Assembly: GCA_036867785.1 (NCBI GenBank)
Contig: CP145410.1
Coordinates: 124,001 to 188,000 of the forward strand
Direction of reading: 5' to 3'
DNA from: Plasmodiophora brassicae
Lineage: Eukaryota
DNA length: 64,000 nucleotides
A program made the position numbers and the translations under genes. Below the pieces are notes generated by a model. That model did not search any database. It had not been told where the DNA came from and saw nothing but the letters and a program-made list of their open reading frames with translations. This document shows, piece after piece, positions 32,757 to 37,907 of the stretch. Position 1 is the stretch's first letter; each line of letters begins with the position of its first letter.

Positions 32757-33886
32757 ATGGTGCGGGCATGTCAGGTGGCGTTACGCCTGCGCGGTCGGCC
32801 CGTCGTCAGCGACGTCCTGGTGCGGGATGGCGACCCGCGCCGGTCGGCGCATACGATCGTCATGTTCCCGGGTGAGTCGCCAGATCGCTGCGATCATATT
32901 GCCGCGCTCGTGTCGACGCTATTGGTGTGCTGCAGGCAACCCATCCGTCCTGCCGTATTACATGAGGTTCATGCAGCTGATCGTGAACGGCATCCCCGAT
33001 TACGTGCCAATGCACACAGGTGAGCGGGCCTGTCAAAGGACGCTCCATCGGCGTTGACGGGTCTGGCTCAGTGGGTCATGCGGGGTTCAGCAATGTCGAC
33101 CATAATCGCGGCGAGCTGTTCGATCTGGACGACCAGATCGATTTGAAGATTGCGTATTTGGATGCCCTCCTGGAGAAGTCGCCGGCATCGCGTTTCATCC
33201 TGATGGGGCATTCCGTCGGCTCGTACATGGTTCAGCAACGCGTACGATGCAATGTCACATTGCTCAGTATCACGACCATGTAGGCCATGGAGGTGCTGTC
33301 TCGAAGACCCGATTTGCCTGTCGATGGCAACGTGTTCTTGTTTCCGGCGTTATCGCAGCTGGAAGTGGCATGGCCGATCCGCATACTGCAGGTTCCTGTC
33401 GCGCGCGAAGGAATCGGCTTCCTCGTGAACGTGTTGCCCAAAACGGTTAAGTCCCTGGTTATCGGTATGATCCCATCGGTTCGCGACGAAGCCATCATGC
33501 TCGGTGAGCACTTGAACGCGCATACAGGTCGGGTTTCGTGCTCGCGTTGAACGCTCCGCCTCTGATTGCTCGTGACAGTACGAAACGGACTGGCGCTTAC
33601 TCGTGACGAGCTTGCCAAGATCCGCCAGCTGCCCGAATCTAGGTTGGCGACCCTGAAGCGCCATGCGTCCAAATCGTTGTACATCTTTACGCCGTTCGAT
33701 GAATACGTGCCCATGCATCTGGTGGACGACCTGCGAGCAGCGGTCCCCGACGCTAAGCACCATGTCTTCTCGCACAGCGATGGCGTTCGCCACGCTTTTG
33801 TCCTCAGCGACAGCGACGTTGTCGCTCAGCACGCGTTGATGCATTTGTCCGAGTTCTTCCCTGAGCGCGCCCCCGCCGATGCATAA
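32757..33886 (+). CDS. LDAH: Lipid droplet-associated hydrolase (LDAH-family alpha/beta hydrolase); multi-exon
   Basis: IVMFPG/NPS..YY; GHAGF; FDLDDQI; nucleophile motif MGHSVGSY; LFPAL; DEYVP; HAFVL. Confidence 0.85.
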
Positions 33887-33989
33887 ATGCTTCTTGACCC
33901 ATGTCGGTCCAGGCCAGATCTTTCTATGACAGGTCTAATTCCGTGGATTGGGGTAGGTACTCGATCGTACCCTTGACGCGGCGCAGACG

Positions 33990-36900
33990 ATGGTGCTCGC
34001 TGCTGACGATGGTGTCAGCCCGATCCCGCCGATGGCCGCATGCCCGAACATGGTGCCGGTCACGATTGCTGCCATCGTGTTCGGATGGTGGCTGGCGCCG
34101 ATCGCTGCGATCCTGGGCGTCCTCGAGATGACCACGAAAGGGTGGTTCGTGTCGCGCTACCAAGCCGCCGTGTGGATCAGCCAGGTCAAGGTCTGGCAGC
34201 TGGAACGGTACCCGCGCTCCTCCTTCATCTGGGCCATCACCCGCCTGCTCGACACGTACCACGCCGTCCAGTTCCCGTTCCGCACGCTGGACCCAGGCAA
34301 CCTGGGCGCCAGGAACACCCCGCGCACGCCAGGCGACTACATGGTCCTGTTCGACGGCGTCTTCGCCCTCTCGAACCACGATGCCGCCGCGCTGATCATG
34401 TCGGAGCGGCAGGCGCGTTGGGCGAATCTCGTTACGTTGCCGATCGCCGTCCCGCAAGTCCTCGATCCTCGAACGTTGATCTTCCTGTCGAGCCCGTCCG
34501 CGTCGCACGACCGCCAGCTGGCCGCCATCGCCTCGCTGCTGTCGTCACGCGTTCCTCGGGTCGCCCTGCTGGGCGACCGGTTCCGACGCTGGTCCAGCCA
34601 GCGACACGCCACCTGGGACCTGCTCGTCACGCGATTGACCGTCGACGTCCTGTTCAAAGCGGTTCTGGACATAGACCTGACGAACCACGAGCTGGATATG
34701 TGCAACGTATACAAGATGATGATCGGGCTGATTGGCCTGCCGGGGTCCCTGTATCGCGCCGTCTTCGACCTGCCGACGTACCCGATCATGTACGCGAGGG
34801 ACCTGCTGGCCACGGCGATAGAGACGCGGGCACCCAAGTCGATCTTGAGGGACCTGGCGGCCAGCGGTGCGTACCTGCCCAACGAACGCATCGCTCTGCA
34901 CGTCGTCGACATGGTCCTGTTCGCCGGTACCATCGGGACGGGCGCCGCGCTGGGCGCATGCCTGAAACGCCTGAACGAGAACGGCGACCGTGTCGGCATG
35001 TACCTGGCGAACCCGTTGCACTTCATCTACGAGAGCTTGCGCCTCGATCCGCCTGTCGGTGCGATCCACACGATCACGACCGAGGCGGCCACGCGAGTGC
35101 AGGTCAACGGCAGGCCAGTGTGCCTACCCGCAGGCACACAGCTGTGCGCCTCCATCGAGGACGCGAATCGCGACCCGAAGGTCTGGGGGTCGAACGCCAA
35201 CACCTTCGACATGCAGCGCGACTATAGCCGCCTCCTGACGTGGGACGGCCTGCAAGGCAATGGACCGAGAACCTGCCCTGGACAGTCGCTCTCCATTGCG
35301 ATCTGCACACAGGCGCTCAACGCCTACGTCCGTCGCGACAAGGCGATCACGTACAAGATTACGATCGCCAACGAGGACGTCCTGGCAGTGCCCTTGCTGA
35401 GCAAGTCGGTGTACGTGATCCTGGAGGGCGACGCGGGCACGTCGGACAAGATCCACGTGCCGGCGGCGTCGACGGCGACGTACAGGTCCACGGTCGACCT
35501 GGGCCGGGTGCTTCGCGTTCAGATCGGGTTCGCCGGCTGGGGCATGCTATCGCCGAGATGGTTCGTGAAGTCGGTGGACGTTCGTCGGCAGGACCCGGGG
35601 TCCACGTGGCGGTTCCCGGTGAACCAATGGCTCGGTGCCAGCTCGCCTGTGCTGTCCGCCCTCGAGGGCACGCCATCGCTGTTGACAGCGTCGAGGATTG
35701 AGAACAGGTTCCGGGACGAGGAGATGGCCGCTCGTCGACAGGCGTACCGTTTCGCCGACAAGCAGGCTCTGGTGGGGGAATGGGGTACGGCTCTGCCGGC
35801 GTCAGTTGCAACGACAGCGCTCGGGCGGGTCCCTTCGATTCCCTTGCAGGAGCGCCCGCCTTTGAACATGCTGTACTCGTCCGTGAAGGACCTGTTGCAT
35901 GACGTCGCGCGGCGTGCCCGCATGCTGGTCGACAAGATGACCACCCTGGACGACTATCGCCAGGAATGTCTCCGCGGCAGCGACGTCTTCCGAGATCAGG
36001 GCATTCTCCCCGCGTACCCGCTTCAGAACTGGCGAACAGATGAAGAGTTCGGCAGACAGCGCCTCGAAGGTTTGAACCCGATGACTATTCGCGTGGTGTC
36101 AAGTTTGCCAGAGTAGGTGACAGCAGGTCGCGCTTCTCCCGTGCTCTGACCTGCGCGAACAGATCATTCGGCGTTACGTCGGCGATGGTGGAACCGTTCT
36201 TACCTCCAAACCGGACGCTTGACCAGGAGCTGGACGCCAGGCACCTGTTCATGCTGGATCACGACTGCATCGAGGGGATGGACGGCGTGCACTTCGCCGG
36301 CGTCCGCTACCTGGGCCAGCGGCCGCGTCGGTTCCTGTCGGTGCCATACTGCCTGCTGCATGCCGACATGGCCAACGGGTACAAGCTGAGGCCAATCGCC
36401 ATCCAGCTGTCCCGTCAGCCGGGGTCCTTGGTGTACACGCCAGCGGATGGACCATTCGACTGGCTCATGGCGAAGCTCGTCGTCAACAACGCCGACTTTG
36501 TCGTTCACCAGTTCAAGTACCACGTACGTGTGTTTGGCAATGCTGGTCGAGCACCGTGCTCTAAATCTGCTATCAGGCGTTGACTTGTCATCTCGCACCC
36601 GAGGCGATTGTCTGCTCGCTGCAGAGGAACCTACCCAGTGTGCACCCGGTCTACAAGCTTCTGCGCCCGCATCTGAACGGGTTGGCGTTCATCAACAACC
36701 TCGCCCGGGGCTTGCTCTTTATCACCGACGACAAGTACCGGACGCCGCTGACAGTCATGGGTGACATCACGACAGTGGGAGCGACTGGCAATTCCAAGGT
36801 CGCCATCAGCGCGTACCGCTCGTATTCGTACGCGGAGACCGACTTCAAACGGGCCATGGGGAGCGCTGGCTTCACGAAGCCGTCCGGCGTCACCGAATTC

Positions 36901-37600
36901 GCGTTCTTTGACGACGGCCTGCTCGTCTACGAGTAACAATGGGTAAAGTGAAGGCTGAACAGCAAAGTCTTACGTTGAGCACAGGGCCATTGAGGAATAC
37001 GTCGGCGACATGATCGGCCTGTGGTACACGGACGACAAAAGCGTGACGGGTGACGAGGACCTTCAGCGCTTCTACGACGAGTTGGCCAGCGTCGGCCAGC
37101 TTCGAGGTGTGCCAAACATCACAAGGGGAGTCGTGCCGCTCCGAGAGTTCTGCGTCACGTGCATCTTCACGGCTAGTGCCTTGCACGCGGCACTGAACTT
37201 CTCCCAGATCGACTACGCTGGCATCGTCTGCAACTAGTACGTCGCATGCAAACCTGGTCGACGCGCGACTGACTCGTTCAATAGCCCGGCAGCCTTGTTC
37301 CGAGCGCCGCCTCTAGAGAAAGGCGTTGTCGATGAGCAATTCATCCTGGATATGCTGCCGCGGGGCGAAGGCTTTCTGACGCAGATCGGTCTGATGTCGT
37401 TTCTCTGCCAGAAAACGACGGACCTGCTGGGACGTTTCCGGTACCCGACGTTCACCGATTCTGCGAGCCTGGCCGCGATCGCCAAGTTCAACGAACGGCT
37501 GCAGAGGGTCGAGTCGATCATCACGGAGCGCAACGCGAAACGTGCTCTTCCGTATCTATACCTGCTGCCGTCTCGTATCCCAAACTCGACGGCCATCTGA
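33990..37600 (+). CDS. Cytochrome P450-PLAT-lipoxygenase fusion protein (~1135 aa); exons 33990-36112, 36163-36523, 36577-36932, 36985-37236, 37285-37600
   Basis: P450: FAGTIGT, ESLRLDPPV, ANRDPKVW, GPRTCPG. PLAT: YKITIA..VYVILEG..WFVKSVDV..FPVNQWL. LOX: WRTDEEFGRQRLEGLNP, WLMAK..HQFKYHALTCH, HAALNFSQ, C-terminal IPNSTAI. All four GT-AG introns keep frame. Confidence 0.95.
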
Positions 37601-37620
37601 TGCATCGCCAATCAATACAT

Positions 37621-37907
37621 TCACGAGTGTCGGAAGAGTTTCAGGCCGAGCCAGTTGACGTAGACGGTTGAGGCGAGCACCGGGGCGCACAGCGGCACGA
37701 GCAGCGAATAATAATGGTCGTCCCGCAGCCAGTCCAGCGCCGAATGGTTCATAACGGGCATGAACTTCGATACGACGACGGCGTAAATCACGACCGTCCA
37801 CACGACCAGCGCCAGCAGCAGTAGCAGGTACCTGCCTGCAGATCAGAATCGCCGATCCCGCGACCGTCGCAGGCAGGCCGCACACACCCACACAGGACGA
37901 CACGCAT
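37621..37907 (-). CDS. PIG-Y-like GPI-GlcNAc transferase subunit; 2 exons
   Basis: YAVVVSKFMP..LDWLRDDHYYSLLVPL..YVNWLGLKLFRHS matches my recollection of the small PIG-Y family pattern. Confidence 0.8.

Follow-up and report, generated by a model that had tools for sequence, protein, structure and literature searches.

In a window of 64,000 nucleotides of Plasmodiophora brassicae (the whole stretch analysed, contig CP145410.1, positions 124,001 to 188,000, on which all coordinates below are counted), positions 33990–37600 of the plus strand hold a gene of five coding exons for a 1135-residue protein that joins an N-terminal membrane anchor, a cytochrome P450 (P450), a PLAT domain and a lipoxygenase (LOX). 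A preliminary description, made from the DNA letters alone, had proposed this fusion and had considered that the organism might be a plant parasite, as P. brassicae, which causes clubroot, is. The plus-strand stop-to-stop frame at 33957..36116 is open over 719 codons, and Pfam recognized in it p450 (31.5 bits, cut-off 22.8), PLAT (29.8 bits, cut-off 23) and the start of Lipoxygenase, with the remaining lipoxygenase on frames downstream of 36116. The claim that one uninterrupted exon runs from the anchor through the P450 and PLAT into the LOX was thus borne out by the open frame and the Pfam matches. Coding exon 1 (33990..36112, supported by the open frame, Pfam and transcript contigs) encodes residues 1–707 plus two nucleotides of the next codon, and is followed by exons at 36163..36523, 36577..36932, 36985..37236 and 37285..37600, which were placed by contigs and alignment. 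Between them lie four introns with GT..AG ends, at 36113..36162 (50 nucleotides), 36524..36576 (53 nucleotides), 36933..36984 (52 nucleotides) and 37237..37284 (48 nucleotides). When the exons were joined by script, they gave 1135 codons with a single terminal stop, TGA at 37598–37600, and the full protein matched Lipoxygenase with an E value of 1.3e-47 (163 bits), p450 with 30.4 bits (cut-off 22.8) and PLAT with 29 bits (cut-off 23).

To place the gene structure on transcripts, we collected the public runs that contained 50% or more of the words sampled from 33900–37700, which gave 20 runs of 9 studies. In several of them the word fraction was about 0.91, presumably the share left once four short introns are gone. 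Contigs were placed on the locus for four runs of four studies (X3, X4, X8 and X13). The joint 36112>36163 was present in all four runs, as was 36523>36577, whose shorter side in X13 measured only 29 letters; 36932>36985 was present in three (X4, X8 and X13) and absent from X3; and 37236>37285 was present in two (X4 and X8), with intron 4 retained in X3 and no joint there in X13. One contig each in X4 and X8 covered 33957–37700 with the four introns out and otherwise no differences. Since these single contigs span all the domains, P450, PLAT and lipoxygenase lie on one spliced molecule, and the cDNA-type check of a common transcript across the domains that had been called for came out in its favour. 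The four introns had been described as frame-preserving; their exact joints were found in the contigs, but their lengths are not all multiples of three, so that the reading frame is kept only in the spliced product.

The contigs also added a feature that had been missed. All of them broke at 33957, which is a splice acceptor, and resumed at 33902, the continuation mapping to 33873–33902 in the loose-end consensus of X3, X4 and X8, and we therefore placed a fifth intron, of 54 nucleotides and with GT..AG ends, in the leader at 33903..33956, in addition to the four downstream introns already described. Within the end of the leader exon (33879..33902, seen in contigs X3, X4 and X8) lie an in-frame ATG, at 33879, and the stop codon of the upstream gene (33884–33886). 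Public models start the fusion protein at 33990; the frame is open from there back across the leader splice junction to the ATG at 33879, which as an alternative start would add 19 residues.

Turning to the protein, its highest 19-residue Kyte–Doolittle window starts at residue 26 (mean 2.19), and together with a model helix from residue 22 predicts a hydrophobic anchor at about residues 22–46 (34053..34127). It is followed by the P450 fold, at about residues 115–453 (34332..35348), of which the Pfam p450 profile matched only the last third of the domain (residues 345–444). The fold was modelled by AlphaFold2 from a 42-row alignment, confidently over about residues 115–450, with a mean local confidence (pLDDT) of 78.9 and a predicted template-modelling score (pTM) of 0.77; over residues 121–450 the pLDDT was 78–98 and mostly above 88. 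A Foldseek search with this model returned at least 500 matches, and all rows among the matches listed were P450s, with a target template-modelling score of up to 0.67. The K-helix ExxR (E348 and R351, 35031..35042) and the predicted haem thiolate C429 (codon 35274..35276, as read from the DNA) were invariant in 42 of 42 aligned relatives, and ExxR also in 27 of 27 fusions. Residues A312, G313, G316, R410 (the meander Arg, in FDMQR), R427 and G431 were nearly invariant in the 42-row alignment. The haem-thiolate loop NGPRTCPG follows the pattern GxRxCxG, but lacks the Phe that usually stands seven residues ahead of the Cys. By haem loop, ExxR and meander Arg, fold and profile score, the domain thus belongs to the P450 superfamily (PF00067).

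The I-helix of this domain departs from the canonical form. The pattern (A/G)Gx(D/E)T(T/S) of O2-activating monooxygenases, whose acid–alcohol pair supplies the protons for that activation, is replaced by AGTIGT in the motif FAGTIGTG (residues 311–318, 34920..34943), with Gly316 at the place of the Thr, whereas two canonical P450s of the same alignment have AGSDTT and AGMVTT. In the alignment of 27 fusions, Ile-Gly stands for the acid–alcohol pair in most of the family (FAGxxGT). According to the accessible part of a 2026 review (PMC13049297), P450s that isomerize peroxides are self-sufficient, and their residue at this I-helix position is Asn, Thr or non-polar; those it names are thromboxane synthase, prostacyclin synthase (PGIS), plant allene oxide synthase (AOS) and the AOS, linoleate diol synthase (LDS) and EAS partners of fungi. 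In thromboxane synthase and the fungal 8S- and 9S-AOS, the proton-delivery threonine is replaced by a non-polar residue (PMC13049297, same part). The missing acid–alcohol pair would fit a self-sufficient enzyme acting on hydroperoxides, which we take as suggestive rather than diagnostic, and it is in keeping with the order first proposed, in which the LOX would act before the P450.

The PLAT domain, at about residues 455–565 (35352..35684; the Pfam PLAT match covers residues 473–550), comes directly after the last P450 helix, which ends at residue 453, with no linker. From residue 472 to the C-terminus the protein aligned end to end with human 5-LOX (chain positions 40–691, E values of 2.1e-79 to 2.9e-79), its best solved relative (PDB 3o8y). 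The LOX half gave E values of 9.2e-70 with coral 11R-LOX, 4.5e-67 with human 15-LOX-2, 1.6e-63 to 1.8e-64 with the 8R-LOX of the coral AOS-LOX (about residues 503–1135) and about 1e-35 with soybean LOXs. As the best scores were obtained with human 5-LOX and coral LOXs and the soybean ones were weaker, the lipoxygenase is of the animal/coral type and not of the plant type. Its alignment over the full length and its ligands (His-x4-His, His-x3-Asn and the C-terminal Ile carboxylate) make it an iron lipoxygenase (PF00305) with PLAT (PF01477) in front. Five iron ligands, H828 (36521–36523, at the very end of exon 2), H833 (36589–36591, in exon 3), H1014 (37184–37186) and N1018 (37196–37198), both in exon 4, and I1135 (37595–37597, in exon 5), aligned with 5-LOX H367, H372, H550, N554 and I673, in the motifs HQFKYH-ALTCH, HAALN and the C-terminal Ile. 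Alignment therefore placed the LOX ligands, the C-terminal Ile, E348/R351 and C429 where the preliminary description had put them. Next to the Ala/Gly stereo determinant, the alignment with 5-LOX has a gap of 7 residues, and because of it the stereo- and regiospecificity of the LOX is not callable.

We then looked at how widely this architecture occurs. A full scan of 1.84 billion representative proteins gave 253 relatives at an E value of at most 0.001. From the 149 listed matches other than the protein itself, 46 were picked for their length and a match to the P450 part and were scanned with Pfam, leaving out 34 PLAT-only matches and short ones. Behind the P450, 26 of the 46 had a Lipoxygenase match at an E value of at most 0.001 (24 of them at or above the Pfam cut-off); the other 20 included P450-only proteins, P450–PLAT pieces, one peroxidase–P450 fusion and one P450–hydrolase fusion. 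The three best relatives (P0002, from the chytrid Nowakowskiella; P0003, from the diatom Stephanopyxis turris; and P0004) were 26–28% identical in one alignment across P450, PLAT and the LOX start. In the alignment of 27 fusions they form with the P. brassicae protein a group, A, that has PLAT and the classical ligand motifs; P0003 and P0004 carry the same five iron ligands, and P0002, which is partial, lacks the C-terminal Ile. Group B comprises 22 proteins of 890–1739 residues among P0016–P0120, for example P0036 of Amorphochlora and P0059 of Rhodomonas. Their LOX-like domain is divergent (DHLxxxH, HxHVG in place of HxxxN, C-terminal SVSI) and has low Pfam scores, and their haem loop usually has 7–10 extra residues. 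We know of no described function for these protist proteins. A separate fusion, P0132 (1200 residues, from a metagenome), combines PLAT and a LOX of the plant type with a canonical P450 (1.8e-45). Judged from these matches, the P450-LOX design is not unique to P. brassicae, as the preliminary description might have led one to think; its other sources include a chytrid, a diatom, a chlorarachniophyte and a cryptophyte. In a 64-row tree of P450 domains the P. brassicae protein stood near the root on a long branch, a placement that says nothing on where it came from. With 31 chosen rows and a simpler model, grouping it with P0002–P0005 cost 0.09 log-likelihood units (p-AU 0.497), a difference that neither rejects nor establishes a single origin for group A.

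The same P450 type was also seen beside other partners. In P0027 (1072 residues) it lies behind an animal-haem-peroxidase domain, and the P. brassicae P450 half was 26% identical to that of P0027 over 240 residues (E value of 3e-20); in P0055 (1331 residues) it is joined to alpha/beta-hydrolase and FSH1 domains. A word-indexed homologue search with exon 1 found, among 8000 scored candidates, only the protein itself, and a word-indexed search with the P450 alignment gave 9 matches, which besides the protein itself were one relative and ordinary bacterial P450s, and no P. brassicae paralogue. Within the 64-kb window we found no other copy of a P450 or a LOX.

The spliced product is letter-for-letter P0155, that is XXQ30595.1, annotated as 'Lipoxygenase domain-containing protein [Plasmodiophora brassicae]'. 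The model of strain e3, CEP00685.1 (617 residues), comprises only residues 519–1135 and is without the P450; that of strain eH, SPQ93830.1 (1435 residues), is the fusion protein preceded by 300 residues of the upstream lipid-droplet hydrolase. In the accessible supplement of a 2016 study of P. brassicae lipid droplets (PMC5118790), PlasB_00600 is entered as 'ALOX5.3', EC 1.13.11.34; the start of its sequence matches the fusion protein over the roughly 400 residues shown, in a cell of 1136 characters, and its expression in three samples is given as an RPKM of 36.2, 41.9 and 18.2. The term 'P450' does not occur in the main text of that study in the form accessible to us. As the gene is in the public annotation and in the 2016 supplement, there as a plain lipoxygenase, it is not new, and an impression of novelty has to be given up for the gene; the fused architecture, unlike the gene, seems to have gone unremarked so far. 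Like the preliminary description, which knew of no characterized P450-LOX fusion, a literature search found none described, only catalase-type AOS-LOX and dioxygenase–P450 fusions, with most subscription journals outside its coverage. We conclude that the P. brassicae gene is a real, expressed fusion that recurs in protists and is a so far uncharacterized variant of the known haem-enzyme–lipoxygenase fusions, with a presumed function. The eH-strain model differs from the protein of the window by 11 amino acid substitutions, none at the catalytic residues named above, and 6 of the 11 are also found in the e3-strain model over residues 519–1135.

One close precedent is the coral catalase-related AOS-8R-LOX of Plexaura homomalla (PDB 3dy5, 2fnq and 3fg1), which likewise has an N-terminal haem enzyme, PLAT and a C-terminal iron LOX on one chain, and whose LOX is clearly related to that of P. 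brassicae. In the coral enzyme, as described in the accessible parts of PMC5617202 and PMC3925239, the LOX forms a hydroperoxide that is then converted by the haem domain, a logic that would be expected of the P. brassicae protein too. In P. brassicae, in contrast, the haem domain is a P450, with a predicted thiolate ligand and a P450 fold, and no catalase family was found; furthermore, the clubroot protein has a predicted N-terminal membrane anchor. Another precedent is given by the fungal DOX-P450 fusions (Ppo, linoleate diol synthase, 8- and 9-DOX-AOS and 10R-DOX-EAS), in which a self-sufficient P450 isomerizes the hydroperoxide of the fused oxygenase (PMC13049297, accessible part). They share with the P. 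brassicae protein a hydroperoxide-forming oxygenase and a P450 on one chain, but the oxygenase is here a non-haem iron lipoxygenase with PLAT in place of their COX-like dioxygenase of the animal-haem-peroxidase kind, with no An_peroxidase match in Pfam, and the order is reversed, with the P450 first. Human 5-LOX resembles the fusion protein in PLAT and the five aligned iron ligands, and differs from it as a soluble stand-alone enzyme.

A functional analogy for the P450 half comes from the same organism. CYP50918A1 (CEO97746.1 according to PMC10813956) is a hydroperoxide bicyclase of P. brassicae that turns 13-HPOT and 15-HPEPE into oxylipins (PMC12843491; both sources in their accessible parts), and is thus a P450 that acts on lipoxygenase-made hydroperoxides. 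Identity of the P450 half with CYP50918A1 was ruled out by accession, since the locus corresponds to CEP00685.1, SPQ93830.1 and XXQ30595.1 (accessions, not sequences, were compared). A 2021 paper on CYP50918A1 reportedly names two expressed CYP74-related P450 genes in the genome, of which the fusion gene might be the second.

Taken together, these features suggest that the protein is probably a single-chain enzyme whose LOX makes a hydroperoxide that the P450 half then converts with no need of O2, NADPH or a reductase. The two activities and the coupling between them, like the substrates and the product, are what we infer here. The anchor and PLAT would hold the enzyme on a membrane or on the surface of lipid droplets, where the PLAT-LOX half could oxygenate a free polyunsaturated fatty acid to its hydroperoxide, most likely arachidonate or eicosapentaenoate, or else a C18 polyene. 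The haem-thiolate P450 half would then rearrange or dehydrate the hydroperoxide without electrons from outside, to yield an allene oxide, an epoxy alcohol, or a cyclized or cleavage product, of a class not predictable from sequence. Among the fatty acids of resting spores, arachidonic acid is reported to rank first in abundance, and the lipid droplets are described as rich in 20:4 and 20:5 (PMC5118790, accessible part). Given a LOX of the animal/coral type and the arachidonate of the parasite, products of the eicosanoid type are at least as likely as jasmonate-like ones, which weakens the suggestion of host-modulating, jasmonate-like oxylipins that had been made from the sequence.

Several observations weigh against such a function or against parts of the evidence for it. 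CYP74 enzymes are marked by a roughly nine-residue insertion in the haem-binding loop; here the loop does not exceed that of a bacterial P450 in length. Neither by sequence nor by profile (the profile also included two ordinary bacterial P450s) did a CYP74 structure come within the best 60, and the guayule AOS (3dan) ranked 48 by Foldseek, with scores like those of many bacterial P450s. The I-helix (FAGTIGTGAA) has no Asn, unlike plant AOS, PGIS and fungal LDS. For plant AOS the reference motif is FN321TwGGMKI (PMC13049297, accessible part). By sequence, profile and fold, the P450 half is thus judged to be without specific likeness to CYP74. We found no measured activity, haem binding or product for the fusion protein or its relatives. 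As to the transcripts, the RNA nature of the runs is a guess, no run with this stretch being listed as RNA, and the spliced forms are taken without comparison to DNA runs; because the contigs extend into the upstream gene, the transcription start is left undefined. Finally, one low-depth X13 contig omits 35303–35354, which in a sense reading would cause a frameshift and end the protein at residue 452, just past the P450; since the skipped segment has CT..AC ends, an antisense transcript fits it better.

The likeness to bacterial enzymes raises the question of whether the P450 half instead depends on a reductase, as a conventional monooxygenase does, and would act before or after the LOX, for instance in the epoxidation or hydroxylation of fatty acids. 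Its nearest solved and ESM Atlas relatives are ordinary bacterial P450s, monooxygenases that include the fatty-acid-binding P450 BioI and BM3; the Atlas search with the P450 half returned bacterial P450 clusters only; and the haem loop is of normal length. We nevertheless regard this as unlikely, as the proton-delivery Thr is replaced by Gly and the preceding acid by Ile in nearly the whole family, no reductase or ferredoxin domain is fused to the protein or was found among the open reading frames scanned at 24–47 kb, and the same P450 type is repeatedly fused to a hydroperoxide-forming LOX or to a haem peroxidase/dioxygenase. Alternatively, the P450-like half could be catalytically silent and serve as a membrane anchor or as a lipid-binding or regulatory module, leaving a membrane-tethered lipoxygenase. 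The Pfam match is indeed weak (30 bits) and confined to the last third of the profile, the domain is short, at about 340 residues, and in the 2016 study the protein figured simply as a 5-lipoxygenase (PMC5118790, accessible part). On the other hand, the whole P450 fold was modelled with high confidence, and ExxR and the haem Cys are invariant, with Arg410, Arg427 and Gly431 nearly so, in relatives that are only 20–29% identical; conservation of this kind in distant relatives is hard to explain without haem binding, and makes a silent domain improbable.

Two further explanations concern the extent of the protein rather than its chemistry. The contigs of X3, X4 and X8 extend upstream of 33957 into the 3' end of the LDAH gene (lipid-droplet-associated hydrolase) by 997, 122 and 2868 letters, one public annotation joins both genes, and the P450 relative P0055 is fused to alpha/beta-hydrolase domains, all of which would agree with a triple fusion LDAH-P450-PLAT-LOX as in the 1435-residue SPQ93830.1. 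Such a product is very improbable, however, because the LDAH stop codon TAA (33884–33886) lies within an exon that the contigs keep, and the 1435-residue model needs a 58-nucleotide intron with TT..GT ends to avoid it. In a compact genome, contigs that carry no strand information run adjacent genes together, and the same contigs also enter the convergent gene downstream; moreover, the newest public annotation and the 2016 model separate the two genes. The opposite view, that the fusion is an artefact of assembly or annotation and that P450 and lipoxygenase are separate genes, could appeal to the older e3 model, which holds the LOX part alone, but is refuted for practical purposes: no stop interrupts the 719 codons across the P450, PLAT and LOX boundaries, the same DNA is present in the 20 runs of 9 studies, single contigs bridge the region, and the three nearest relatives share the continuous layout.

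Beyond the single-chain enzyme that makes and converts a hydroperoxide, we propose, tentatively, a wider picture. A broad family of self-sufficient P450s, recognizable by FAGxxGT in the I-helix and (S/T)W(N/D)G...PRxCPG in the haem loop, may have been fused repeatedly, in microbial eukaryotes, to PLAT-LOX, to a divergent LOX-like domain, to a haem dioxygenase and also to hydrolases, and the P. brassicae gene would be its first recognized member. It might then represent a third independent design that combines, in a single chain, a dioxygenase with a haem enzyme that converts hydroperoxides, and the P. brassicae member might form a novel eicosanoid-type product from arachidonate or eicosapentaenoate. 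Natural fusions reveal enzymes that work together, and the coral catalase-type AOS-LOX and the fungal DOX-P450 proteins each opened a field of oxylipin biochemistry; P450-PLAT-LOX would be the third such design and a ready-made two-step catalyst. If so, synthesis would take place on the surface of a membrane or lipid droplet, perhaps with fatty acids released by the adjacent LDAH lipase as substrate, and the product could act in spore dormancy, in germination or on the host. As this important crop parasite, which stores arachidonate and eicosapentaenoate, cannot be grown in culture and is hard to manipulate, an enzyme that can be expressed separately is one of the few direct routes to its lipid signals. 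Together with many marine sequences, the chytrid, diatom, chlorarachniophyte and cryptophyte relatives suggest an unexplored branch of protist oxylipin chemistry. Users of the e3 model, which lacks the P450 half, or of the eH model, which wrongly includes the hydrolase, would miss the design.

The fusion gene lies between two neighbours. Upstream, on the plus strand at 32757..33886, is the LDAH gene for a protein of 302 residues (Pfam LIDHydrolase PF10230, 1.3e-43, placed by tblastn), whose 3' end is contiguous with the leader of the fusion gene in the contigs, by way of the intron at 33903–33956. We read these contigs as overlapping or read-through transcripts and not as a triple fusion; that a lipase adjoins a lipoxygenase gene is suggestive. 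Downstream, the convergent PIG-Y gene occupies 37621–37842 of the minus strand (PF15159, 1.4e-17). A loose T-run in X3 marks its poly(A) site at 37598, where the fusion gene's stop codon begins, so that the 3' ends of the two genes overlap. An Rfam scan of the window gave no match.

Outside the window, the accessible supplement of PMC5118790 lists two more stand-alone PLAT-lipoxygenases of P. brassicae, PlasB_01596 and PlasB_01602 ('ALOX5.1/5.2'), the latter entered with an unlabelled 25 among the proteins of the supplement table. PlasB_04008 (EC 1.14.-.-), considered as a P450 partner, looked on a check by eye like a membrane desaturase and not like a P450.

A last observation concerns the opposite strand of the fusion gene. 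Two contig joints have CT..AC ends, at 35303–35354 in X13 (52 nucleotides) and at 36927–36973 in X3 (47 nucleotides). Read on the minus strand, both are canonical introns, GTACGT...CAG and GTAAGA...TAG, which suggests that a spliced RNA is made antisense to the P450-LOX gene.

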